This document shows, piece by piece, positions 1 through 61,892 of a stretch of 64,000 nucleotides of DNA. The DNA lies in contig JACQEO010000084.1 in the NCBI GenBank assembly GCA_016200545.1, positions 5,528 to 69,527 on the forward strand. Direction: 5' to 3'. Both the position numbers and the translations under genes were made by a program. The notes beneath the pieces were generated by a model that was not told the origin of the DNA, searched no databases, and was given only the letters and a program-made list of their open reading frames with translations. The stretch comes from Deltaproteobacteria bacterium. Its GTDB lineage: Bacteria; Desulfobacterota; Binatia; UTPRO1. Positions within the stretch are counted from its first letter, which is position 1. Each line of letters begins with the position of its first letter.

Positions 1-919
1 GAAGGCGCGCGGCCTCGATCTCACCGAGATCCTACACCGACCCGAGGTGCCGGAGCGGATTCCGATCCGCTGCACGCAGCCGCAGGACCACGGTCTCGAG
101 AAGGCGCTCGACCGGGTGCTGATCGAGCGCTGTCGTCCGGCGCTCGAGCGTCGCGAGCCCGTCGAGGTGTCGCTGCCGATCCGTAACGTCAACCGCACCG
201 TCGGCACGCTGCTCTCCGCCGAGATCTCACGGCGCTACGGAGCCGACGGGCTGCCCCCGGAGACGATCACGCTGCGCTTCAACGGCTCCGCCGGACAAAG
301 CTTCGGCGCCTTCCTCGCGCCCGGCATCGCGATCACGCTCGAAGGCGATGCCAACGACTACTGCGGGAAAGGCCTCTCCGGCGGCCGCATGGTCGTTTAC
401 CCGCCGCGCGCGGCGACCTTCGTCCCCGAGGACAACATCATCGTCGGCAACGTCTCTCTCTACGGCGCCACCGGCGGCGAGGTCTTCTATCGCGGCATGG
501 CCGGCGAACGCTTCGCGGTGCGCAACAGCGGCGTCACCGCCGTCGTCGAGGGCGTCGGCGATCACGGCTGCGAATACATGACGAAGGGCCTCGTCCTCGT
601 GCTCGGGAAGACCGGCCGCAACTTCGCCGCCGGCATGAGCGGTGGCGTCGCCTACGTCCTCGACGTCGACGGCGACTTCAAGGGCCACTGCAACCTGAGC
701 ATGGTCGAACTCGACCCGCTCGAGGAGCACGACCTCGCGACCGTCAAAGACCTGCTCCGTCGCCACTACGAGTACACCGCGAGCACGGTGGCGTGGCGCA
801 TCTTGTCGGGCTGGCAGGAGTTCGCGCGCCAATTCGTGAAGGTGATGCCGGTCGAGTACCGCAAAGTGCTGGCGGCGGCGCACCTCGACACCGACGCCGC
901 CCGCGTCGCCGCGGTCTAG
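1..919 (+). CDS. gltB: Glutamate synthase large subunit, C-terminal (GXGXG) domain; 5' end lies outside the window
   Basis: The reading frame is open from the window edge. The translation ('[41 protein letters not shown]…[20 protein letters not shown]') is the conserved C-terminal beta-helix of GltB. gltD follows 12 nt downstream. Confidence 0.9.
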
Positions 920-931
920 ACCGGGGCGACG

Positions 932-2383
932 ATGGGAAAGATCACCGGGTTCCTCGAGATCGGGAGAGAGTTGCCGGCGCGCCGGCCGGTCGCGGAGCGC
1001 TTGCGTGACTGGCGCGAGCTCGAAGGGAAGCTCCCCGAGGACAAGCTCCAGGCGCAGGGCGCGCGCTGCATGGATTGCGGCATCCCCTTCTGTCACAAGG
1101 GCTGCCCGCTCGGAAACATCATCCCCGATTGGAACGATTTGGTGTATCGCGGCCGCTGGAAGGACGCGATCGACCGCCTTCACTCGACGAACAACTTCCC
1201 GGAATTCACCGGGCGCATTTGCCCGGCGCCGTGCGAGGAGGCCTGCGTTCTCGCCATCAACGACGACGCGGTCACGATCAAGCAGATCGAGAAGCAAATC
1301 ATCGATCACGCGTTCAAGGAGGGCTGGATCGCGCCGGTGCCGCCGTCGCAACGCAGCGGTAAGCGGGTCGCGATCGTCGGTTCGGGTCCCGCGGGTCTCG
1401 CCGCCGCCGCGCAGCTGAACCGCGCCGGCCACACCGTCGAGGTGTTCGAGCGCGCCGATCGGATCGGCGGGCTTCTCACCTACGGCATCCCCGACTTCAA
1501 GCTCGAGAAGTCGATCGTCGAGCGGCGCCTGCAGCAGATGCGTGCGGAAGGCGTCGTCTTTCGCGTCAACGCGAACGTCAGCGTGAACGTGCCCGTCAGC
1601 GAGCTGCGCGCCAACTACGACGCGATCGTCCTCGCCGGCGGCGCGACCTGGGCACGCGACCTGCCGATTCCCGGCCGTGAGCTCAAGGGCATCCACTTCG
1701 CGATGGATTTCCTGCCGCAGCAAAACCGCAAGGTCGCCGGCGACGCCGTGCACGAGCAGCTCGTCGCGACCGGCAAGAACGTCGTCATCCTCGGCGGCGG
1801 CGACACCGGCTCCGACTGCCTCGGCACGTCGAACCGCCAGGGTGCAAAGCGCGTCCACCAGTTCGAGCTGCTGCCGAAGCCGCCCGAGTCACGGACGGAG
1901 GAGGTCGCACCGTGGCCGTACTGGCCGATGATCCTCCGCAGCTCGAGCTCGCACGAGGAAGGCGTGCAGCGCGACTGGAGCGTCAACACCAAGGCATTCT
2001 CCGGAGATGCCGACGGGAACGTCCGCAAGCTGCACGGCGTCCGCCTGGAGTGGACCAAGGACGCGAGCGAGCGGCCGCAGATGACGGAAGTGCCGGGGAG
2101 CGACTTCGAGATCGACTGCGAGCTCGTGCTCCTGGCGATGGGATTCCTCGGCCCCGAACGCACCGGCATGCTCGAGGAGCTCGCGGTGCGCCTCGACCAA
2201 CGCGGCAACGTCGCCGTCGGCCCCGACTATCAGGCGAGCGTACCCGGCGTCTTCGCCTGCGGCGACATGCGGCGCGGACAGTCCCTCGTCGTCTGGGCGA
2301 TCTGGGAGGGGCGTGAAGCGGCGCGTGGCGTCGACGCGTTCCTCATGGGCCACACCTACCTGCCGTCGAGCCCCGAGCTGTAG
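932..2383 (+). CDS. gltD: Glutamate synthase small (NADPH) subunit
   Basis: 483-aa ORF with the Fe-S Cys cluster ('[17 protein letters not shown]', 'CPAPCEEAC'), an FAD/NAD Rossmann motif ('[14 protein letters not shown]'), and a position directly after gltB. Confidence 0.9.
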
Positions 2384-2509
2384 ACGACGCGCCCGGGTCG
2401 CCCCGTCGCACGATGCACGCGCGCGGGGGCGCTTGCCGGGATCCGCCGTGCGCGCGAAGATACGCGCGTGGTGCACGTCGATCGCGCTTCCCGCCGGTCT
2501 CGGTTGGCC

Positions 2510-3586
2510 ATGCGCACGCTCGGTCGCGGCGCTGCGGCGCTCCTCGTATCGACAACGCTGGTGACGCCGCGGATCGCCGCGAGCGCAACCGTCACTTGCG
2601 GCATGGTCGTCGAGGATCAGATCGTGCTCGACCGCGATCTTCGCTGTGCGGGCCCGGCGCTCGTTATCCGCAACCCTCGCACCGTCGTGCAGCTGAACGG
2701 TCACGTCCTCGAGTCGTCGCGTCCCTGTCACGACGCGGGGTCGACCGTCGGCATCGTCGTCGAGCCGACCGCGGACCGCGCCAACATCCTCGGGCCCGGC
2801 ATCGTGCGCGGCTTTGCGACCGGCATCACGATCGACTGGGCGCCGCAGGTGCAGCTCCGCGATCTCCGCGTCACCGACAGCTGCGCCTTCGGCATCGCCG
2901 TCCGCAGCACGACCGCCACCCGCGCCCGCGACCTCGTCCTCGATCGTAACGGCGACGGCGGCGACAGCGCCGGCGCGATTCGCGTCGAGCACGCGCGACG
3001 CTTCGCGCTCGTCGACAGCGACGTGCTCCTGAACGACGCTGGCGCGAACGGAGCGGCGATCGACCTCCGCAGCTGCGAGAACTGTCGCATCGGCGGCAAC
3101 CGCGTCGTCGCCAACCACGGCGCCGGCATCCGCCTCGACGTCGAGTCGCAAGCAAACGAGGTCGAGCGCAACCTCATCCTCGGGCAGCGCCCGAGCGACG
3201 TCGTCGATCAAGGCTCCGACAATCTCATTACCCTGAACGGCTTCGACCGCGGCGACGGCGTCGACCCGCCGCCGCTGTGGCCGCTCCTCAGCGTTCCCGC
3301 GTCGCCCGCGCCCGGCATCGCCGGTTGCGGCACGATGCACGACACGGTGGGACCGCGGGCCACGGTGACGATCACGTGCCCGCAGGACGTCGGACTGCGC
3401 GCCGTCCGGAACAGCGTCGTCACCTATCGGCTGCTGAACCCATTCAACACCTCGCAACTCTTCCGCGGAACCTGCAATCCCGGCATCGTCCACCCGGCGG
3501 CGGGGAGCACCGGGGGCAGCGTGAGGTGCACCAACGGCGATTCGCTGTGGCCGGCCGTGCTCGAGGTCACCTGCTGTTTGAATTGA
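2510..3586 (+). CDS. Secreted right-handed parallel beta-helix repeat protein (pectin-lyase fold, NosD-like), function unknown
   Basis: Signal peptide 'MRTLGRGAAALLVSTTLVTPRIAASA'. Repetitive beta-helix rungs ('…NGDGGDSAGAIRVEHARRFALVDSDVLLNDAGANGAAIDLRSCENCRIGGNRVVANHGAGIRLD…'). The start is taken at the Met that begins the signal peptide. Confidence 0.6.
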   Translation: MRTLGRGAAALLVSTTLVTPRIAASATVTCGMVVEDQIVLDRDLRCAGPALVIRNPRTVVQLNGHVLESSRPCHDAGSTVGIVVEPTADRANILGPGIVRGFATGITIDWAPQVQLRDLRVTDSCAFGIAVRSTTATRARDLVLDRNGDGGDSAGAIRVEHARRFALVDSDVLLNDAGANGAAIDLRSCENCRIGGNRVVANHGAGIRLDVESQANEVERNLILGQRPSDVVDQGSDNLITLNGFDRGDGVDPPPLWPLLSVPASPAPGIAGCGTMHDTVGPRATVTITCPQDVGLRAVRNSVVTYRLLNPFNTSQLFRGTCNPGIVHPAAGSTGGSVRCTNGDSLWPAVLEVTCCLN

Positions 3587-3617
3587 AGCCGCCTACGGCT
3601 GCGTTCGTGACACGTTC

Positions 3618-3637
3618 GGCGCGCGCCCCGGCGCGCC
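3618..3637. terminator. GC-rich hairpin between convergent genes (candidate bidirectional terminator; no U-tract)
   Basis: GGCGCGC–gccccg–GCGCGCC perfect 7-bp stem between the stop of the beta-helix gene (3586) and the stop of bfd (3642). Confidence 0.25.
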
Positions 3638-3641
3638 GGCG

Positions 3642-3875
3642 TCAGGCGGGCGCCAGCACCGGCGTCTCGGAAACCGCGAGCTCCATCATCACCTGCGTCA
3701 CCTGCGCGCGTGTCTCCCGGCTCTCGCGCAGGCATTCGCGAACCAGCGCGCGGCATGCGCCGCACCCTGCCCCGGCACCGCAACGACGCTCGACCGCTCG
3801 CATCGTGGCCGCGCCGTCGGCAACGACGGCGCGCAGTTTCCGGTCGGAGACGTTGGCGCAGATGCAGATGATCAT
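3642..3875 (-). CDS. bfd: Bacterioferritin-associated ferredoxin ([2Fe-2S] Bfd)
   Basis: 'MIICICANVSDRKLRAVV…CGAGAGCGACRAL' matches the Bfd pattern (CxC…CxxC; compare E. coli 'MYVCLCNGVSDKKIR'). The start is placed at the Met preceding 'IICICANV'; the track's upstream Met lies inside a palindromic operator. Confidence 0.7.
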   Translation of the reverse strand: MIICICANVSDRKLRAVVADGAATMRAVERRCGAGAGCGACRALVRECLRESRETRAQVTQVMMELAVSETPVLAPA

Positions 3876-18485: not shown

Positions 18486-19274
18486 TCAGGAGCGCGCGGG
18501 CTCGGGCTTGAACCGCCGCCCGATGACCCCCGAGACGCGCCGCACGAGAGCGCGCGGTACGAGACCCGTGAGGCTCGTCGCCACCCGGTTGCCGGCGCCG
18601 GGCACGCACACGACGTCGCCGCGCCGCAATCCGTTGAGCGCGGCATCGACGACGGCCTCCGCCGACATCCAGAAGAAGGCCGGAATGTTCGCGACGTCGA
18701 TGCCCGCGCGTTCCTGGAACTCGGTGCGCGTGAACCCCGGACAGAGTGCCTGCACGCGCACGCCGCTGCCGCGCAGCTCCTCGGAGAGCGCCTCCGTGAA
18801 GCTGTTCACCCACGCTTTGGTGGCGCTGTACGTCGCGTTGAAGGCCCCCGGCTGAAAGGCGCCGACCGAGGAAACGTTGACGATCGCGCCCGCGTGGCGC
18901 GCCAACATGCCGGGCAGCGTTGCGCGCGTGAGGCGCATGAGCGCGATCACGTTCAGGCGGATCTCCTCTTCCTCACGCGTCGGGTCGAGCTCGGCGAAGG
19001 CGCCGACGGTGCCGAAGCCGGCATTGTTGACGAGCAGGTCGAGGGGCGCGGCGGTGACCGCCGCGACCGTGGCGTCGACGCCGCGCGGGTCGCTCAGGTC
19101 GGCCACCAGCACGTCGACCTTGCCGCCGGGCGCGCGCAGACGCGTCGCCAGCTCCTCGAGTCGGCCGCGCGTGCGTGCAACGACGGTGAGGTCGTAGCCG
19201 TCGCGGGCGAGGCGCGCCGCGAAGGCGGCGCCGATCCCCGACGACCCCCCGGTGACGAGCGCGCGCGGACGCAG
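18486..19274 (-). CDS. Short-chain dehydrogenase/reductase (SDR); 5' end lacks a canonical start codon
   Basis: '…RPRALVTGGSSGIGAAFAARLARDGYDLTVVARTRGRLEELA…NNAGFG…YSATKAWVNSF' gives the TGxxxGIG, NNAG and YxxxK motifs. The track ORF begins at an internal GTG (19112), but the Rossmann N-terminus is encoded upstream. No ATG/GTG/TTG precedes it before an in-frame TAG; CTG at 19272-19274 would give MRPRALVTGG. Confidence 0.7.
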   Translation of the reverse strand: MRPRALVTGGSSGIGAAFAARLARDGYDLTVVARTRGRLEELATRLRAPGGKVDVLVADLSDPRGVDATVAAVTAAPLDLLVNNAGFGTVGAFAELDPTREEEEIRLNVIALMRLTRATLPGMLARHAGAIVNVSSVGAFQPGAFNATYSATKAWVNSFTEALSEELRGSGVRVQALCPGFTRTEFQERAGIDVANIPAFFWMSAEAVVDAALNGLRRGDVVCVPGAGNRVATSLTGLVPRALVRRVSGVIGRRFKPEPARS

Positions 19275-19377
19275 GGTCGATCTCTTCTCGGCTGCGGATG
19301 ATTGTGCCTGCGTGTCCCTCCCGAACGTGGGCGGCTATCGCACGAGGACTCGTCCCTTTCAATGCGCGCCTGCGTGC

Positions 19378-43044: not shown

Positions 43045-44583
43045 ATGCGAAGGACGACGCGCGCACCGATGAACCCCGAGCCTTCCAACCTGACGCGCGC
43101 ACGCTGCAGTGCGCTGCTCGCGGCGCTGCTGATCGTGGCGCCGGTCGCTCCGTCCGCGCACGCCGCGCCGCGTGGCAAGCGCCACCCGCGCGACGTCGCC
43201 CTCGGTCTCAGCGTGCAACCGGGGCCGCAATGTCACCTCGGTCGTCACACGCTGACGTATCACGGCGGCGACCTCGTCCAGAACGTCGCCGTGTTCATCC
43301 TGTTTTGGGGTCCCGAGTGGCAAACCGATGCCGAGCATCAGGCGGCCGCCGCCTCCCTGCGCACGATGTACCACCAACTCGGCGGCAGTGAGTACGGCTG
43401 CTCGTGGCAGGAATTCGCGTTGCCGGGCAGTCCGATCGGCGGCGGATCGTATGCCGGCGACGAGATCATCCCGACGCCGCCCGTCTCCCCGGGCCAGCAG
43501 CTCGACGACGCCGACATCCAGGCGCGGATCCTGACGGAGGTACAGGCCCACCGCGCGCCGGACGCGACCGACGACACGTTCTATGTCGTCGTGCCGCCCA
43601 AAGGCGTGCCGGTGATCGCCGGTGGCGAGACGGGCTGCGGCGGGACGAACTTCACCTTCTGCGGCTATCACGACAGCTTCGCGAGCGGCGGGAAGCGCCT
43701 CCGCTACACGGTCCTGCCGTACCCGTGCAGCTCGGGCGGCGCGACTTGCTTCGTCGATTTCCAAGAGAGTGTCGTACCCTCCTTCCAGGCCGTCGGCTCG
43801 CACGAGCTCTCGGAGACGGTGACCGATCCCGATCAGCCCCCGGTCGGTGGGAGCGGCTGGTTCGACGACCACAGCGGCGACGAGGACGCCGACATTTGTG
43901 CGAGCGACACTTGCCTCGTCGACCTCCCCGTGGGCGTGGACGCGTTCACCGTCAACTCGCTGTGGTCGAACCTCGGCGGCGACTGTGTCGCCAGCGCTCC
44001 CTGCGCGGTGCCACCGGCCGCGTGCACCGATCCCGCGCCGGGCGCCTGCGTCACCAACACCCGCAGTCCGCAGGCCTGCGACCTCGAGTGGCACGTCGAG
44101 CCGAACCTCACCCGCGACCGCAATGGCTTCGCCGGCGGGGTGGTCTCTTGCGCCGACGGCCAGCCGTTCTGCGACGTCGATGCCACGGCGGACGGCCGGT
44201 GCACGTTCCACGTCGCGGTCTGCCTGAATAGCACCGACCCGCGCTTCGCCTGCACCGCGAGCGCCGTCGATTCCGTGCAGCTGCGCGGCAAGCTCGCCCG
44301 CAGCTCGGACCCGACCGATAACGCGAATGCCGCCGCGCTCCTCCCGGCGCTCGAGAATGCCGACCCCGGCAGCGCCGGCGCCGCGACGGGGAGCGTCGTC
44401 ACGTACACCCCGGCCGCCGCCACCAGCGACGCGTGCAGCAGCTATGTCGACGTCGTCGTCCCGGTGAAGTCGCGCAACGGGCGCATCACACCGGGAAAGC
44501 GTACGCTACAGGTGGCGACGCGAACCGCGACCAGTAAGGTGAGCGAGAAGCTGACGCTGATCTGTACGCCGACGTTCCTCTGA
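43045..44583 (+). CDS. Secreted protein with an N-terminal PHI-1/EXORDIUM-like domain and the same Cys-rich C-terminal module as the metalloprotease at 11708..13921
   Basis: AGGT-N6-ATG. Signal peptide '…CSALLAALLIVAPVAPSAHA'. 'LTYHGGDLVQNVAVFILFWGPEW' resembles the Phi_1 (PF04674) N-motif. The C-terminal 178 aa align with the C-terminal 198 aa of the metalloprotease. Confidence 0.6.
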   Translation: MRRTTRAPMNPEPSNLTRARCSALLAALLIVAPVAPSAHAAPRGKRHPRDVALGLSVQPGPQCHLGRHTLTYHGGDLVQNVAVFILFWGPEWQTDAEHQAAAASLRTMYHQLGGSEYGCSWQEFALPGSPIGGGSYAGDEIIPTPPVSPGQQLDDADIQARILTEVQAHRAPDATDDTFYVVVPPKGVPVIAGGETGCGGTNFTFCGYHDSFASGGKRLRYTVLPYPCSSGGATCFVDFQESVVPSFQAVGSHELSETVTDPDQPPVGGSGWFDDHSGDEDADICASDTCLVDLPVGVDAFTVNSLWSNLGGDCVASAPCAVPPAACTDPAPGACVTNTRSPQACDLEWHVEPNLTRDRNGFAGGVVSCADGQPFCDVDATADGRCTFHVAVCLNSTDPRFACTASAVDSVQLRGKLARSSDPTDNANAAALLPALENADPGSAGAATGSVVTYTPAAATSDACSSYVDVVVPVKSRNGRITPGKRTLQVATRTATSKVSEKLTLICTPTFL

Positions 44584-44611
44584 GACGCACCGCGCCGGTG
44601 CGGGGCGCACG

Positions 44612-44944
44612 TTGACCGCACGCGATATTGGGGTGTACGAATCGCGCCACGTGAAGCCGCGCGCGACGTCACTGCTGTTGCTCGTCCTCCTTTCTCTGAG
44701 CGGTCGCGCCGCGCTCGCCCACCCCGATACGCTCGGCGAAGCGGATCCCTATTGGCAGCAGAGCGCGAATGCCGCGCGCGACGAGAGCGCCAAAGCGACA
44801 CGGGGCGACACCCCTTCGGGACAGTCGACGGCGGTATCCCGGCTGCTCAAAGGCTTCGCCTACGCGTCGGGCGGCGTGTCCCTGCTGTTCGTGCTCTCGT
44901 TGGTGCGCTCGATGCGGGGCTCGCAACGGCGGGCGCGAGCCTGA
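44612..44944 (+). CDS. Small hypothetical protein with a signal peptide and C-terminal TM segment, immediately upstream of the Zn/Mn ABC ATPase
   Basis: '…RATSLLLLVLLSLSGRAALAHP…GFAYASGGVSLLFVLSLV'. The start is ambiguous (ATG at 44612 or GTG at 44651). Confidence 0.4.
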   Translation: MTARDIGVYESRHVKPRATSLLLLVLLSLSGRAALAHPDTLGEADPYWQQSANAARDESAKATRGDTPSGQSTAVSRLLKGFAYASGGVSLLFVLSLVRSMRGSQRRARA

Positions 44945-44970: not shown

Positions 44971-45690
44971 GTGAGCGCGGACGCCCTGCCCCTCGTCGAG
45001 GTGTGCGACGTCACCGTCCGGCGCGAGCGCGAGCTGCTGTTGGATGCGGTCTCGCTCGCCCTCGCGCCGGGATCGATCACCGTGCTCGTCGGTGCCAACG
45101 GCGCCGGCAAGAGCACGCTCATCGCCGCGATCCTCGGACAGATCGAGTTCAGCGGGCGTATCCTCCTTCACTGGCGCGGGAGCGGACGGATCGGCCTCGT
45201 GCCGCAACGCTTCGCGGTCGACGCGACGCTGCCACTCACCGCCGGCGAGTTTCTCGCTCTGTCGCGCCAGCGCCGCCCGGTCTGCCTCGGGATCTCCAGA
45301 GCCACGCGCGCACGCGTCGACGCGTTGCTCGCCGGAGCCGGCCTTTCCGCGGCTGCATCACGACCACTCGGCTCGCTGTCGGGTGGTGAAATTCAGCGGC
45401 TGCTGCTCGCGAACGCCATGGATCCGATCCCGGAGCTGTTGGTGCTCGATGAGCCCGCGACCGGCCTCGACGACGGCGCGGTCCGGCAGTTCGAGGCGCG
45501 ACTGCTCGCGGCGCGCGCGCAGTCCGGCGTGACGGTGCTCATGGTCTCCCACGATCTCGCGCAGGCGCGCCGTCTCGCCGATCTCGCGGTCATCCTCGAC
45601 CACCGCGTGGCGCGCAGCGGCCGGCCGGCGGAAACGCTCGCGACCGCCATCGAACCGACACTCGCGGCACTCGTCGCACCGCCGGTATGA
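44971..45690 (+). CDS. Metal (Zn/Mn) ABC transporter ATP-binding protein (ZnuC/MntA-like)
   Basis: Walker A 'GANGAGKSTL', signature 'LSGGEIQRLLLANAM', Walker B 'LLVLDEPATGLD'. GTG start inferred; no in-frame ATG. Confidence 0.75.
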   Translation: MSADALPLVEVCDVTVRRERELLLDAVSLALAPGSITVLVGANGAGKSTLIAAILGQIEFSGRILLHWRGSGRIGLVPQRFAVDATLPLTAGEFLALSRQRRPVCLGISRATRARVDALLAGAGLSAAASRPLGSLSGGEIQRLLLANAMDPIPELLVLDEPATGLDDGAVRQFEARLLAARAQSGVTVLMVSHDLAQARRLADLAVILDHRVARSGRPAETLATAIEPTLAALVAPPV

Positions 45691-46565
45691 GCGTGCTCTA
45701 CGAATGGTTGGCTGGACTGGCGCAGGACGGCCGCATTCCCGCGAGCCTTGGCTACGCCTTCGTCGTACGCGGCGCGATCGCCGTGCTGCTCCTCGCGCCG
45801 CTGCTCGGCGGCATCAGCCACCTCGTCGTCGCGCGCCGCCTGGCGTTCTTGAGCACGGCGCTCGGACAAGCGGCGCTCACCGGGTTGACGATCGGCCTCG
45901 TGCTCGGCGAGCCCTTGAACGCACCGTACGGCGGCATCTTCGGATTCTGTCTGCTGTCCGCGATCGGCATGGTGTAGGTGAAGCGTCGCGCGTCATTGCC
46001 GTCGGACACGCTCATCGGCGTCTTCCTCTCGATGACGCTCGGCCTCGGGATCTGCCTTCTCGTGGCCGTGACCAAGCGGTTCAACATTCATCAGATCGAG
46101 GCCGTCATGTTCGGGAGCATCCTCACCGTGACCGACGCGGATCTGGGCTTGCTCCTCGCCGCCGGGATCGTCGTCGCCGGCGTGCTCGCGTGGCACTACA
46201 ACGCGCTGCTCCTCGACAGCGTGAGCCCGCCCCTCGCGCGGGTATCGGGCGTCTCCGCGGCGGCGCTCGAATACCTCTTCGTCGTGCTTCTCACCGTGGC
46301 GATCGTCATTTCGCTCAAAGTGATCGGCGCGTTGTTGGTCGAGGCGCTGGTCATCGTTCCCGCGGCGTCCGGTCGAAACCTCGCCCGCAGCACGGTTAGC
46401 TATCTGGTGTGGAGCGTGCTCACGGCGTTGGCGGCGGGTCTCGGAGGTCTTGCCCTCTCCACCCGTCTCCTGGTGCCGAGCGGCGGTGCCATCGTCCTGG
46501 CGCTCGCCGCGCTCTTCTTCGCCACGCTCGCGATCCACGGGTTGCGGGCGCGCGTCGCGGGCTAA
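45687..46565 (+). pseudogene. ABC-3 family metal permease (ZnuB/MntB-like) interrupted by an in-frame TAG at 45975-45977
   Basis: Two same-frame ORFs (96 aa and 195 aa) sum to a normal ~291-aa ZnuB. The junction 'LLSAIGMV*VKRRASLPSDTLIGVF' aligns with E. coli ZnuB '…[21 protein letters not shown]', putting TAG where TGG (Trp) is expected. Confidence 0.7.
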
Positions 46566-47732: not shown

Positions 47733-47757
47733 CCCGCTCGTCAGCATGCTCGCGCGC

Positions 47758-54356: not shown

Positions 54357-56045
54357 ATGAGCGCGCGTCTTTCTCTCCAGTCGTCGCGATTCCGCGTCCT
54401 GCCGATGGTCGCGGGTCTCGTCTTGGGCACGATGATTGTCGCAACGTTCATCTCCGTCTGTCGGGCCGACGACGAACCCAAGCCGGATCCCGCGGGCATC
54501 GTCACAGGTGACCGGACGAGCGTCTTCGACGCCGGCGGGACGAGTTTCGTCGTCTCCGAGCCGACGGATAAGTCGGTGCCAGACTACGCCCAGAAGCAGA
54601 AGGACTACGACGAGTTCCAAGGGCAGGCCGCCAAGGAGCCACTGGCGATGAAGCTCGCCGACGGCGTCGGACACGTACGGCTCGCGACCAACTTCGGCTG
54701 GACCCTGAATACGGGCTATCTCGTCCTCTTCATGCAGGCCGGGTTCGCGCTCCTCACCTGCGGACTGATGCGCAAGAAGAACGCCGCTCACTTGATGATG
54801 CTGAACTTCGCAGCCTACGTCTTCGCCTTCCTCGCGTACTACGCCGTGGGCTTCGCGTTTCAGTTCGGCGCGGTCGCCGTCAACGCGGCGCCGTTGAACC
54901 TGGGCGGGACACCGACCCTGAACTCATTCCTGATCGGGAACGGATCGTGGGGGTGGCTTGGCGGCAAGGGGTTCTTCTTGAGCGGTCCGGCCTATGACGC
55001 GGGCGCCAACGCGTTGACGCTGTTCGAGGTGGTCTTCATGGAGACCGCCGGCTACATCATCGTCGGGGCCATCTGCGAGCGCATCACCTTCGGCGCTTTC
55101 CTGCTCTGCGAGATGTTCGTCGGCGCCATCCTCTATCCGATCTTCGGCTGCTGGGTCTGGGGCGGCGGATGGCTGTCCCAGCTCGGGACGAGCATGGGCC
55201 TCGGCCACGGCTACGTCGATTTCGCCGGGTCGACCGTCGTCCACGCCGTCGGCGGGTTCTGCGCCATGGCGCTGGCGGTCGTCCTCGGACCGCGGCTCGG
55301 CAAGTACGGGCCGGACGGGAAGGCGCGGGCGTTCCCGGCGCACAACATTCCGTTCGTGGTCACGGGGACGTTCATCTTGCTGTTCGGGTGGATGGGCTTC
55401 AACCCGGGGTCGACCCTCGGCGCGACCGACCTCCGCATTTCCGTCATCGCCGTCAACACGAATCTCGCGGCGGTCGCCGGCGCCGCCTCCGCCATGGTCT
55501 TCTGGTACATGAGGTTCGGGAAACCGGACATCACCATGGCGTGCAACGGCATGCTCGCCGGCCTGGTCGCGATCACCGCTCCCTGCGCCTTCGTCAGTGC
55601 GAACTCGGCGGTCGTCATTGGCATCTTGGCCGGAATCGTCGTGTGCGTGGGCGTACTCTTCAACGAAAACGTCCTCAAGGTCGACGACCCGTGCGGCGCG
55701 ATCTCAGTGCACGGCTACGGCGGATTGCTCGGCGGCATCTCTCTCGGACTCTTTGCCGATGGGACTTATGGCGCCGGCTGGAACGGCGTCGGCGCCGCGA
55801 GCTATCTGGGAACGGCGGGCCAGGGCGTGACCGGTCTGCTCTACGGGGACACGAGTCAGTTCCTTTGCCAGGTGATCGGCGCCAGTACGTCGGCGCTGTG
55901 GGCGTTCGGCGCGACGTTCGTGGTCTTCAAGACCGTGAACGCGATCCGGAGCATGCGTCCGACGATGGACAACGAGCGCGAAGGACTCGATGTGCCGCAG
56001 TTCGGACTCCTCGCGTATCCCGAGGACGCGGTCGTGTCCGACTAG
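54357..56045 (+). CDS. amtB: Ammonium transporter (Amt family) with a long N-terminal periplasmic extension
   Basis: RBS AAGGAGG; 11 TM helices; Amt signature region ('…DFAGSTVVHAVGGFCAMALAVVLGPRLGKY…'). Confidence 0.9.
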   Translation: MSARLSLQSSRFRVLPMVAGLVLGTMIVATFISVCRADDEPKPDPAGIVTGDRTSVFDAGGTSFVVSEPTDKSVPDYAQKQKDYDEFQGQAAKEPLAMKLADGVGHVRLATNFGWTLNTGYLVLFMQAGFALLTCGLMRKKNAAHLMMLNFAAYVFAFLAYYAVGFAFQFGAVAVNAAPLNLGGTPTLNSFLIGNGSWGWLGGKGFFLSGPAYDAGANALTLFEVVFMETAGYIIVGAICERITFGAFLLCEMFVGAILYPIFGCWVWGGGWLSQLGTSMGLGHGYVDFAGSTVVHAVGGFCAMALAVVLGPRLGKYGPDGKARAFPAHNIPFVVTGTFILLFGWMGFNPGSTLGATDLRISVIAVNTNLAAVAGAASAMVFWYMRFGKPDITMACNGMLAGLVAITAPCAFVSANSAVVIGILAGIVVCVGVLFNENVLKVDDPCGAISVHGYGGLLGGISLGLFADGTYGAGWNGVGAASYLGTAGQGVTGLLYGDTSQFLCQVIGASTSALWAFGATFVVFKTVNAIRSMRPTMDNEREGLDVPQFGLLAYPEDAVVSD

Positions 56046-56130
56046 AAACGGCCTGGTCGCCTGGCGGAGCGAGCGGCTCAGTTTCGCGCAAGGTTCATCT
56101 TCCGTGGCCGGCGGCAACCCAATCAGAACG

Positions 56131-56736
56131 GTGGAGGTCTTGCCGCCGTCGGCGAGCGGCGAGACGCGCCTCGTCCTTCAGGCCATCGCAGCGATCGTGT
56201 TCGGATCGTTCTTCGTGATCGGGTTTCACGCGAGCGATGGTGGTCTCGACGGCGGACCCCGCGCGGGTGACCTCGCCCCCTTCCAGATCTTCTTCCGGGA
56301 TGCCACGCCGACCGTGCAACGCACGATGCGCGAGCTGCAGGAAGGAGTGACCGAAGCCGAGAACGCGCGCAGCGCGAGCAAGCGCTGGCCGACAGTCGAG
56401 ACGCTCGCGGCGCAGGGAATCCCGCCCTTCACGAATGCCTCGGACCGCTGGCGCCTCGTCCAATCCGGCCTTTACGTGACCTACGTCGGCACGTCGGCGG
56501 TCGGACCTGACGCCCCCGCCTTCCTCGCGCTCATCCAGGAACCCGAGCTGGGCTACGTCGAGACCGTCATGCCGGCGGCGCCGTCCGATGAGCTCCACCA
56601 TCGGCTCTCCGACGGTACGTTGCTCCACGTATCCTTTTGGTTCCATCGCGAGAGCGTCGTTGCGGACGATCAAGTGATCGCGCGGCCGTTCGCCACGGGG
56701 TGGACGCAGGTGCTCGTCGGTCGGCAACGCCCGTAG
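56131..56736 (+). CDS. Hypothetical single-TM protein downstream of amtB
   Basis: GTG start inferred. TM 'LVLQAIAAIVFGSFFVIGF'. No recognisable domain. Weak RBS. Confidence 0.3.
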   Translation: MEVLPPSASGETRLVLQAIAAIVFGSFFVIGFHASDGGLDGGPRAGDLAPFQIFFRDATPTVQRTMRELQEGVTEAENARSASKRWPTVETLAAQGIPPFTNASDRWRLVQSGLYVTYVGTSAVGPDAPAFLALIQEPELGYVETVMPAAPSDELHHRLSDGTLLHVSFWFHRESVVADDQVIARPFATGWTQVLVGRQRP

Positions 56737-56795
56737 CGACATGCCATCCGGGCGCACGCGTTGACACCGACAGCGAAGACGTACTACCGACACAC

Positions 56796-57395
56796 ATGAA
56801 CCGTCACGCGCGTCGTCTGCAATTTTTCCAGTCCTCCCTCCTCGCTCTGATCGTGCTCCTCCCTTCGTTGGCGCACGCCCACGTCGGGATCGGGCTTACC
56901 AGCGGCTGGGCTCACGGGTTCGCGCATCCGATCAGCGGACTCGATCACGTGTGTGCCATGGTCGCGATCGGACTCTTGGCGGCGGAGCGCGGCGAACGCG
57001 CCGTGTGGGTCGTGCCGCTGACGTTCCTCACCTCGATGGCGTTCGGCGCGCTGCTCGGCATGACGGCGGTCTCCGTTCCCTTCGTCGAGCAAGGCGTCGT
57101 GATGTCGGTCCTCGTCTTGGGTGTGCTCGTCGCCGCGGCGGTGCGACTTCCGCTCGTCGCCGACGTCGTCATCGTGATGCTGTTTGCGGTGTGTCATGGG
57201 CACGTCCACGGCACGGAGATGACGACGACGGCCTTGGGCGTAGCCTACGGCGCCGGGTTCCTCGCCGGCACGGCGCTCCTTCATGCCGTCGGCATCGGCA
57301 TCGCGCTTCTTCCACGCAAGATCGGCGAAGTGAGAGCTGCCCGCTTTGCGGGAGCGGTGATCGCCGTCTGCGGAGTCTACCTGTATCTCCCGTAG
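56796..57395 (+). CDS. HupE/UreJ-family metal (Ni/Co) transporter
   Basis: Signal peptide plus 'HVGIGLTSGWAHGFAHPISGLDHVCAMVAIGL…AVCHGHVHGTEM' gives the His-rich N-terminus and 6 TM segments typical of HupE/UreJ. Confidence 0.75.
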   Translation: MNRHARRLQFFQSSLLALIVLLPSLAHAHVGIGLTSGWAHGFAHPISGLDHVCAMVAIGLLAAERGERAVWVVPLTFLTSMAFGALLGMTAVSVPFVEQGVVMSVLVLGVLVAAAVRLPLVADVVIVMLFAVCHGHVHGTEMTTTALGVAYGAGFLAGTALLHAVGIGIALLPRKIGEVRAARFAGAVIAVCGVYLYLP

Positions 57396-57438: not shown

Positions 57439-58413
57439 ATGAACCGGCGGCTTCGTGTGCTGTTCCTCACGTGCCACCTGATCGGATCGGCGGCCATGGC
57501 GCCCGCGGCCGGCGCGGCGTCGAGTGATCCTGCCGCCCCGCCACCGCTCAAGGTCGGCGTCACCCTGCACCCCTACTACTCGTGGACGAAAAACATCGTC
57601 GGCGCGACCGGTGTCGAGGTACGTCCGGTGATCGCCGGTGAGATCGACGCCGGGAACTACCAGCCCTCACCCGACGACATCGTCAAGCTGAAGGACCTCG
57701 ACGCGATCGTGGTGAACGGCGTCGGGCACGACGACTTCATCTTCGACATGATCAAGGCATCCGGAAACGACCGGATCACCATCATCCGTCCCAATGACGT
57801 CGTCCCGCTGTTGCGCGCCACCAACGGCGAGGGGGTGAACTCGCATACGTTCATCTCCTTCAGCAACGCGATCCAACAAACCTACGCGATCGCGCGCGCG
57901 CTCGCGACCCTACGACCGGCGCTGGCCACGACCTTTCAAGAGAACGCCGCCGACTACGCTCGCCGTCTGCGCACGATCAAAGCGAACGCCGCACGGGCGC
58001 TCGCGGACGCGCGCACCACCCGCGTCGTGACGGTCCACGACGGCTACACGTATCTCATGCAGGAGTTCGGCATCGAGATCGCGGGCGTCGTCGAGCCGGC
58101 GCACGGCCTCGTACCGTCGGCCGCCGAGCTCGAGCGGATGGTCGATCTGATGAAGCGCGAGAAGATCGTCGTCGTGTTCAGCGAGGAGGGCTTCCCGAAA
58201 CCGCTGCTGAACGTCCTTCGCGAGTCGACGGGCGCGCGTGTGTACATCATCAGCCACATCGCCCGTGGCGCGTATACCGCCGAGGAGTTCGAGCGCACGA
58301 TGCAGGGCAACGTCGACGTCATGATCCAGGCGTTGGTGCGGGACGCGAGCGCGACCGTCGCCGAGCGCTACAGAGTAGCGACGCTCGATGCCGCCAATAC
58401 GCTCGTGCGATAG
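57439..58413 (+). CDS. Metal ABC transporter substrate-binding protein (ZnuA/TroA cluster-9 family); orphan with no adjacent ATPase or permease
   Basis: '…KVGVTLHPYYSWTKNIVG…VVNGVGHDDFIFDM…NSHTFISFSNA…VHDGYTYLMQEFG…' fits the TroA-like fold. Confidence 0.8.
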   Translation: MNRRLRVLFLTCHLIGSAAMAPAAGAASSDPAAPPPLKVGVTLHPYYSWTKNIVGATGVEVRPVIAGEIDAGNYQPSPDDIVKLKDLDAIVVNGVGHDDFIFDMIKASGNDRITIIRPNDVVPLLRATNGEGVNSHTFISFSNAIQQTYAIARALATLRPALATTFQENAADYARRLRTIKANAARALADARTTRVVTVHDGYTYLMQEFGIEIAGVVEPAHGLVPSAAELERMVDLMKREKIVVVFSEEGFPKPLLNVLRESTGARVYIISHIARGAYTAEEFERTMQGNVDVMIQALVRDASATVAERYRVATLDAANTLVR

Positions 58414-59572: not shown

Positions 59573-59744
59573 ATTCGCCTCCCTTCATCGATAGTGACGC
59601 CATGCTTCCGTATCACGTACACCGTCGCACTTGGATCCCTCGGGACGGCTGGCGGGCCTCGAACCCGGGCTGGTACGACTACCCAATCGACACGGTGGCG
59701 AGCCTGGCAACCGCGGACGAGCTTCGAGCGGACGGAATCACGTT

Positions 59745-61892
59745 GTGACAACTAGCCCCGATACGCGCGTATACACCTGCCCCATGCACCCCGAGGTCCG
59801 TCAGGTCGGGCCCGGGTCCTGTCCCATCTGCGGCATGGCGCTCGAACCTGCGGAGGTGACGCTCGAAGACGAAGAACCGGATCCCGAGCTCGTGGACATG
59901 TCCCGCCGGCTCTGGGTCAGCTTCGTCCCGACGCTCCTCCTCTTTGTGGGGGCGATGTCGGAGATGCTACCCGGCGCCGCTTCGTTCTCGCACGTCTTCT
60001 CGATCCGCACGCGGACGTGGCTCGAGGTTGTCCTTGCGACGCCGGTGGTCCTCTGGGGCGGTGCACCGTTTTTCCAGCGTGCGTGGATGTCTCTCAAGAC
60101 CAGGCGGCTGAACATGTTCACGCTGATCGCCCTCGGCACGGGTGCCGCATACTTCAGCAGCGCCGTTGCCGTCTTTTTCCCGGATGCGTTCCCGGCGTCG
60201 TTTCGCGGCCACAATGGTGAAGTACCCCTCTACTTCGAAGCGGCGGCGGTGATTACGCTCCTTGTCCTTCTCGGCCAAGTGCTCGAGCTCCGCGCGCGCC
60301 GTCAAACGAGTGGCGCGATCAAGGGTCTCTTGGGGCTAGCCCCAAAGACTGCTCGGCTCGTCCGCGCCGACGGCGCGGAGCAAGACGTGCCGCTCGAATC
60401 GGTCAAAATCGGGGACCACCTTCGCATCCGACCGGGAGAGAAAGTGCCGGTCGACGGCATCGTTCTCGGCGGTCGAAGCTCGGTCGACGAATCGATGGTG
60501 ACTGGAGAATCGATCCCGGTCGAGAAGGGTCCCGGGGACACGGTGACGGGAGGCACCGTGAACGGCACCGGGAGCGTCATCATGGAGGCCCGACGAGTTG
60601 GGCGAGACACCCTCCTCTCACAAATCGTCGCAATGGTGAGCGAGGCTCAGCGGAGTCGCGCTCCCATCCAGCGTCTTGCGGATGTCGTCTCCGGCTACTT
60701 CGTTCCCGGCGTCGTGTTGGTCGCGTTTCTCACGTCTGCTGCGTGGATAGTGTTCGGGCCTGAGCCGCGCCTGGCCCACGCCTTCGTGAGTGCCGTGGCG
60801 GTTCTCATCATCGCTTGCCCGTGCGCTCTCGGACTCGCGACGCCGATGTCCATCATGGTCGGCGTCGGGCGCGGCGCGCATGCAGGCGTCCTCGTGAAGA
60901 ACGCCGAGGCACTCGAGACGCTCGAGCGGGTGGATACCCTCGTCGTCGACAAAACGGGGACGCTCACCGAAGGGAAACCCAAGCTCGTCCAGGTCGTATC
61001 GCTCGACGGAACGACCAACGAGGGCACGCTCCTTGTCCTGGGTGCAAGTCTGGAGCGCGCAAGCGAGCATCCTCTCGCAGCGGCCATCGTCTCCGGAGCA
61101 GCGGAACGAAAGCTCGCACTCTTGCCGGTCGAGAGATTCGAGTCGGTGACCGGGAAAGGAGTGCGCGGCACGGTACAAGGTGTGAACGTTGCCCTGGGTA
61201 ACGCTCGACTGCTTCAGACACTGGAGCTCGATAGCACCGCTGTGGAGAGCCGGGCTCTGGCCCTTCGAGAGGATGGCCAGACCGTGATGTACCTCGTCGC
61301 AGATGGGAAGATCGTCGCGCTCCTCGGCGTCGCCGATCCGGTCAAGCCGACGACCGCGGAAGCAGTCCGGGCGCTCGAGCTCGAGGGAGTCTCGGTCGTG
61401 ATGCTTACAGGCGACAACCGCAAGACCGCTCTGGCGGTAGCTCGCAAGGTCGGCATCAAAGACATCGAGGCCGAGGTGCTTCCGGATCAGAAAGCGGCCG
61501 TCGTTCGCCGCGAGCAGGAGCGCGGTCGCGTGGTGGCGATGGCTGGAGACGGCATCAACGACGCGCCGGCGCTCGCACAAGCCCATGTCGGAATCGCGAT
61601 GGGCACCGGCACGGATGTGGCGATTGCGAGCGCCGGGGTGACGCTCATCAAAGGCGACCTGCGCGGCATCGTCCGTGCACGGAAGCTCAGCCGCGCGACG
61701 ATGCGAAATATTCGACAGAACCTCTTCTTCGCGTTCATCTACAACGCGCTCGGGATTCCCATCGCGGCAGGTCTCCTCTACCCGACGTTCGGAGTCGTCC
61801 TGAGCCCGATGCTCGCGAGCGTCGCGATGAGCCTGAGCTCCGTGTCTGTTATCGCGAACGCGCTCCGACTGCAGCGCGTAACCCTCGAGTGA
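59745..61892 (+). CDS. copA: Copper-translocating P1B-type ATPase
   Basis: N-terminal 'YTCPMHPEV…[12 protein letters not shown]' metal-binding domain, TM CPC motif '[13 protein letters not shown]', phosphorylation 'DKTGTLT', '[10 protein letters not shown]'. GTG start inferred. Confidence 0.85.

Follow-up and report, generated by a model that had tools for sequence, protein, structure and literature searches.

The permease gene of a metal ABC transporter is interrupted by an in-frame amber codon in the 64,000-nucleotide stretch of DNA analyzed here (referred to below as the window). We put at about 75% the probability that the interruption is a genuine, very recent nonsense mutation (Tyr97, TAC to TAG) in an FpvCDE/ZnuABC-type permease and likely a loss-of-function allele. 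The host is an uncultured, Candidatus Binatia-like groundwater bacterium that carries the label 'Deltaproteobacteria bacterium' at NCBI. The two pieces of the permease (MBI3770718.1, 96 aa, and MBI3770719.1, 195 aa) are both named 'metal ABC transporter permease' there and both lie on a 137-kb MAG contig. The nearest species-representative genome, referred to below as the sister, is the Candidatus Binatia MAG JBGOSW01, whose permease shows 98% amino-acid identity to that of the window; at the nucleotide level, the genes of the sister lineage and of the window are 95.8-95.9% identical.

The interrupted gene and its ancestral codon

The window reads GGC ATG GTG TAG GTG AAG CGT around the site, with the TAG in frame with the ATG at 45687. 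The list of open reading frames (ORFs) contains 45687..45977 (96 aa) and 45978..46565 (195 aa) in one frame, the second of which opens with a GTG that abuts the TAG and is the conserved codon of Val98, and ends at the natural stop TAA (46563-46565). When the TAG was masked, the resulting 292-aa product matched Pfam PF00950 (ABC-3) continuously (residues 23-282 against profile positions 2-256 of 258), with an E value of 2.5e-44 and a score of 152 bits (cut-off 20.1), which places it in the ABC-3 family. Because this match is continuous across the stop, the two ORFs are one gene broken by one codon. Uninterrupted proteins of 292 aa exist that share 90-98% identity with the entire read-through product. 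A previous reading of the window from its sequence only had described a ZnuB-like permease split by this TAG; the description holds, and the alignment to E. coli ZnuB on which it drew was reproduced with PDB 9oko (query segment llsaigmvYvkrraslpsdtligv), which has Trp at the column of the stop. The features are summarized in Table 1.

Table 1. Coordinates and supporting data of the interrupted permease gene and the associated features of the window.
Feature	Position	Strand	Evidence
ABC transporter ATP-binding subunit, 239 aa, intact	44971..45690	+	Pfam ABC_tran, E 3e-21; 239-aa Logan gene call
N-terminal 96 codons of the ABC-3 permease: N-terminal helix and predicted TM1-TM3, invariant His45	45687..45974	+	MBI3770718.1
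Synonymous derived C->G that turns codon 96 from GTC into GTG, 3 nt 5' of the nonsense change	45974	+	C in 4/4 outgroups
In-frame amber TAG in place of Tyr97 (ancestral TAC)	45975..45977	+	C->G at 45977
C-terminal 195 codons of the permease: cytoplasmic KRR loop, predicted TM4-TM9, coupling helix	45978..46565	+	MBI3770719.1
DUF6162 protein, orthologous first cassette gene, displaced here	55990..56736	+	Pfam DUF6162, E 8.7e-7
HupE/UreJ-family membrane protein, between DUF6162 and the binding protein	56637..57395	+	Pfam HupE_UreJ, E 1.5e-50
Cluster A-I metal-binding protein (ZnuA family, FpvC-like), intact	57439..58413	+	Pfam ZnuA, E 4e-43

Twelve orthologous loci were read directly at the site: the ten from other lineages all have TAC (Tyr), and the two with TAG represent the window's own strain. 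The 53 species-representative genomes examined have TAC (40), TTC (10), TGG (2) or TAT (1) here, corresponding to 41 Tyr, 10 Phe and 2 Trp, and a stop codon does not occur. The 120 best homologues (protein clusters) have Y (91), W (17), F (10) or A (2) at this position. Polarization with four outgroups places the change from TAC to TAG on the window's own branch, to which the synonymous change in the preceding codon was also assigned. The mutation is thus TAC to TAG, Tyr97 to amber, a premature in-frame stop where the orthologues have a sense codon. The loss of a 'conserved Trp', as originally proposed, was not borne out: the column is aromatic but mostly Tyr, and the ancestral codon is TAC, not TGG. 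Since the ancestral residue is Tyr, an error-free read would be expected to show TAC, and the TGG that had been named as the sign of an error was the wrong expectation. A search for a templated origin of the C->G pair (quasi-palindrome or direct repeat) yielded no direct or inverted copy of at least 7 nt within 1.5 kb.

No other split gene was found among the abutting same-frame pairs of high-GC3 ORFs in the window, all of which are distinct genes (examples are GXGXG subunit and GltD-like protein, histidine kinase and SDR, and TPR protein and Asp/Arg hydroxylase). A tblastn search for a second ABC-3 permease returned the gene itself only, so that an intact paralogous znuB, for which a search had been suggested, is absent from the 64 kb of the window. 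A separate observation concerns a short-chain dehydrogenase gene on the reverse strand (18486-19334), which has the Rossmann motif ALVTGGSSGIG in frame. No ATG, GTG or TTG lies between the upstream stop and this motif, and the first listed start (19112) is situated past the motif, which leaves an in-frame CTG at about 19264 (ACC CTG CGT CCG) as the sole plausible start. Either this is a rare CTG start or the start codon was lost; if lost, it would be another point-mutation lesion in the MAG.

Effect and age of the stop codon

The topology of the permease was taken from an AF2 model of a 90%-identical orthologue (P0001), which is of low confidence (pLDDT 61.6), and from the structure paper on E. 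coli ZnuB, which describes nine TM helices, a channel lined by TM2 and TM4, and a coupling helix after TM5 (PMC12236471). A simple hydropathy scan for TM segments was discarded, as its output was overlapping and unusable. The helices of the model (24-50, 52-72, 82-101, then, after a loop at 102-109, 110-128, followed by six more) fit the ZnuB topology. This places residue 97 where TM3 is predicted to end on the cytoplasmic side, immediately ahead of the conserved KRR loop. With TM1-3 on one fragment and TM4-9 plus the coupling helix on the other, neither fragment alone would have the full transport pathway, and loss of function of the permease is therefore the most likely outcome expected from this topology. 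Mechanistically, the single C->G exchange at 45977 would make the Tyr97 codon amber, ribosomes would terminate at the predicted end of TM3, the N-terminal piece would lack TM4-TM9 and the coupling helix, and the remainder would lack a ribosome-binding site of its own. The transporter would then be non-functional or nearly so, with the ATPase, the binding protein and the DUF6162 partner still intact. Of the earlier proposal that the importer is inactivated, the part on the reading frame stands, as the frame is broken by a single TAG; inactivation itself is the most likely consequence, as judged from topology.

Relative to the sister, the dN/dS of the permease is 0.075, the lowest among 13 syntenic genes (range 0.075-0.79), of which it is also the only one with a stop, and no further stop or frameshift was found in it besides the TAG. 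Changes on the window branch comprise 6 nonsynonymous and 15 synonymous ones, compared with a neutral expectation of 72:28 (p = 5e-5); after the stop, 5 of 14 are nonsynonymous (p = 0.006 vs neutral), and dN/dS is 0.10. The low dN/dS and the non-neutral counts on the branch argue for strong constraint through nearly all of the recent history of the gene. Relaxed selection on the window branch (6:15) as compared with the sister branch (1:8) was considered and rejected (Fisher p = 0.39, both being far from neutral). On these counts the stop would be either very young or tolerated; purifying selection that stays strong up to the present is expected equally of a gene that is still functional, a point against a young loss.

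A tolerated split or leaky allele that keeps some transporter function is the likeliest of the alternatives, although we consider it improbable. Reinitiation at UAG-GUG could yield TM1-3 and TM4-9 as two co-assembling polypeptides, or low-level misreading of the UAG by near-cognate tRNA-Tyr could re-insert Tyr and give the wild-type protein. The stop falls at a helix-loop boundary (the predicted end of TM3 before the KRR loop), and NCBI annotates the two pieces as two proteins, but neither the 53 species genomes nor the 120 closest protein clusters contain a split version. The GTG at 45978 abuts the stop without a gap, but as the conserved codon of Val98 it is present in intact orthologues, too. 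The derived GTC->GTG change creates a GGTG three bases upstream of this GTG, at a distance of merely 3 nt; no canonical Shine-Dalgarno sequence precedes the GTG, and other genes of the window have GGAGG-type sites. The absence of further decay and the dN/dS of 0.10 after the stop would fit a tolerated split, but a mutation of very recent origin would account for the low dN/dS just as well, and the sister, at 96% nucleotide identity, is intact, so that the split form has not persisted in evolution. The most far-reaching version, a naturally split ABC-3 permease in which translation reinitiates at the GUG and the chains reassemble into a working, perhaps down-tuned importer, is highly improbable; if true, a split working permease would account for the absence of further decay.

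Returning to the young nonsense mutation, its features are those of ordinary bacterial nonsense pseudogenes, namely one point mutation, a gene constrained until recently, and intact partner genes. Nothing substantial sets it apart from them; some residual function is conceivable only because the stop and the GTG happen to adjoin at a helix-loop boundary.

Sequencing error and recoding

If the organism truly had TAC, the G at 45977, and perhaps also that at 45974, would be a systematic sequencing or assembly error. Two C->G differences 3 nt apart in a G-rich context (GGTGTAGGTG) are a pattern that sequence-specific errors could produce, and the remainder of the permease gene looks fully functional. 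The TAG sequence was, however, seen not only in the NCBI MAG contig but also in assemblies that Logan made independently, with a different assembler, from two runs (SRR12113413 and SRR12113411), and the same split gene is called there. Over 4974 and 4477 bases, respectively, the Logan contigs match the window at 100% identity, and they cross the site; moreover, consensus errors at covered positions are rare in short-read assemblies. Because the same allele is present in independent assemblies of two runs, a random base-call error, the alternative left open by the sequence-only reading, is very unlikely (note that the two runs may be libraries of one site or DNA pool, so that random error is excluded by their agreement and not every systematic error). 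No intact allele of the same strain was found in a collection of 15 billion proteins, and at the 90% clustering level the 195-aa piece shares its cluster with just one other member, the 98%-identical protein of the sister. An artefact is a distinctly unlikely explanation.

A recoded amber, decoded by a pyrrolysine or suppressor tRNA to give full-length permease by design, has as its sole points that the codon is TAG and that the gene is otherwise intact, and is effectively refuted for the window: among 51 high-GC3 ORFs (high GC3 being a signature of real genes) the terminators are TGA (33), TAG (17) and TAA (1), which makes TAG the terminator of roughly a third of the well-supported genes, it also ends the sister orthologue of the permease itself, and the site is Tyr, Phe or Trp in all 53 genomes. 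The genes ending in TAG include the Rieske oxygenase gene immediately downstream, the ammonium transporter gene and the gene of the binding protein; genome-wide reassignment of TAG was rejected given its frequent use as terminator in the window. No tRNA, including suppressor or Pyl tRNA, was found in the window, and the RNA surrounding and following the stop is no more stably folded than shuffled sequences (z = 0.28). Neither the marks of UAG recoding (TAG avoided as terminator, TAG in frame in conserved genes, a tRNA-CUA) within the window nor those of programmed read-through, given this z value and a stop that none of the 53 relatives has, were observed. The TAG is an ordinary, unrecoded stop.

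Cassette, metal and meaning of the gene break

The TGA of the ATPase gene overlaps the ATG of the permease gene (ATGA), making the ABC ATPase adjacent and translationally coupled. It is 92% identical to its counterpart in the sister genome, without a stop and with a dN/dS of 0.215. Both genes stand after those of two uncharacterized secreted proteins and before the Rieske oxygenase gene. The upstream pair (43045-44944, forward strand) is conserved directly upstream of ATPase and permease in the window and in the sister genome and is without a Pfam or NCBIfam match. Of the two products, one is secreted, rich in Cys and 512 aa long. The second, of 103 aa, evolves fast (dN/dS 0.79); it carries a signal peptide and a C-terminal hydrophobic segment that leads into an Arg-rich tail. 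On the other side, between the Rieske oxygenase gene and a cytochrome c gene, the sister genome (L007, 12180-17073) has about 5 kb that are absent from the window (47733-47757) and encode cytochrome c, cytochrome b and a Rieske protein (bc-complex-like) as well as an Fe-S flavoprotein; this difference is an indel between genomes that are 93% identical.

In 42 of 53 related genomes (cassette loci L014-L065, at positions of about 700-3870 of each) the gene order is DUF6162, ZnuA-family binding protein, ATPase and, last, permease; DUF6162 orthologues are located upstream of the binding protein in 45. The cassette binding proteins of these relatives are 57-89% identical to the window protein at 57439-58413, which with 324 aa has the same length. 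Since its orthologues adjoin ATPase and permease in the 42 relatives, this protein is, judged by gene order, the orthologous partner of the broken permease. In the window the cassette is split: DUF6162, an inserted HupE/UreJ gene and the binding protein are found 11 kb downstream of ATPase and permease. In the sister genome, too, the cassette is divided (HupE and the binding protein are on a separate contig), and the permease there is intact; the separation of the cassette therefore predates the mutation. What had been taken for an orphan ZnuA-like protein at 57439 thus belongs to the permease system, and it is not a leftover of decay. HupE occurs in the cassette flanks of none of the 53 relatives, and the HupE/UreJ gene is not part of the ancestral cassette.

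Several further observations were made on the cassette and its surroundings. The four-gene cassette is found across labels of several phyla, such as Binatia, Myxococcota, Thermoanaerobaculia, Gemmatimonadota and others. In two long-read MAGs, MFD09495.bin.2.10 (L063) and MFD10007.bin.2.165 (L065), the orthologous permease aligns in 2-3 separate pieces, which suggests frameshifts, either real or long-read indel errors. The true start of the DUF6162 gene is probably inside its ORF; no paper mentioning DUF6162 and no NCBIfam match to it were found, and its place in the cassette is that of fpvK, which precedes fpvC in P. aeruginosa. In the window lineage and in the sister (L066, 1187-1789) the HupE/UreJ gene (Ni/Co-type) is directly upstream of the gene of the FpvC-like binding protein, an insertion that pairs the latter with a secondary transporter. 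Downstream of the binding protein and EF-P is the gene of a heavy-metal P-type ATPase (59631-61892, forward strand) whose N terminus carries an HMBD domain, and several metal-handling genes are clustered in a 6-kb stretch around the binding protein and this ATPase.

Regarding the metal, the permease scored 111.9 bits against the NCBIfam equivalog ZnuB (NF007089, cut-off 284) and 113.6 bits against AztB (NF040871, cut-off 280). The best NCBIfam match of the ATPase was AztA with 141 bits (cut-off 220), and its scores are far below the cut-offs of ZnuC and AztA. The best PDB match of the binding protein was P. aeruginosa FpvC (6r3z; E value 5.8e-65, aligned residues 37-302). With these scores, the earlier name 'Zn/Mn importer' is a family-level label only; the metal need not be zinc.

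In the pyoverdine pathway of P. aeruginosa, FpvC binds Fe2+ in the periplasm and works together with the FpvDE importer (PMC6954188). The window system is FpvCDE-like in that its binding protein is nearest to FpvC and that 42 of the 53 relatives have the order binding protein, ATPase, permease, as in fpvC-fpvD-fpvE of FpvCDE(F). The cassette of the relatives is also preceded by the gene of a small membrane or uncharacterized protein, as in fpv. In contrast to fpv, neither an FpvF-type second, siderophore-binding protein nor fpvGHJ reductase genes (FpvGHJK complex) were recognized among the scanned ORFs of the window, a pyoverdine context is not known here, and in the window lineage the cassette is split over 11 kb. 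E. coli ZnuB (9oko) is likewise an ABC-3 protein (aligned residues 28-280, E value 1e-29) with nine TM helices, a coupling helix after TM5 and an aromatic residue (Trp) at the mutated position, whereas the window permease is not an equivalog of it (112 vs 284 bits), belongs to a clade with Tyr at this position, and is encoded by an interrupted gene. Unlike ZnuC, for which the NCBIfam model has 251 positions, the window ATPase has 239 aa and may be without the C-terminal zinc-sensing extension. The manganese permease PsaC of S. pneumoniae (PDB 7kyo and 7kyp), also of the ABC-3 family (residues 24-280, E value 5e-21), has Tyr at the equivalent position (IIITYIKGN) but is a more distant sequence relative with another operon context.

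The gene break is an ordinary event, most likely a young loss-of-function allele, and has no bearing on the genetic code, on recoding or on the mechanism of the transporter. For annotation it means that NCBI gives two permease proteins where one disrupted gene stands. For the organism it means that one metal-uptake route of the FpvCDE/ZnuABC type is probably off in the sampled groundwater population and, with ATPase, binding protein and DUF6162 partner intact, it would capture gene loss at its very first step.
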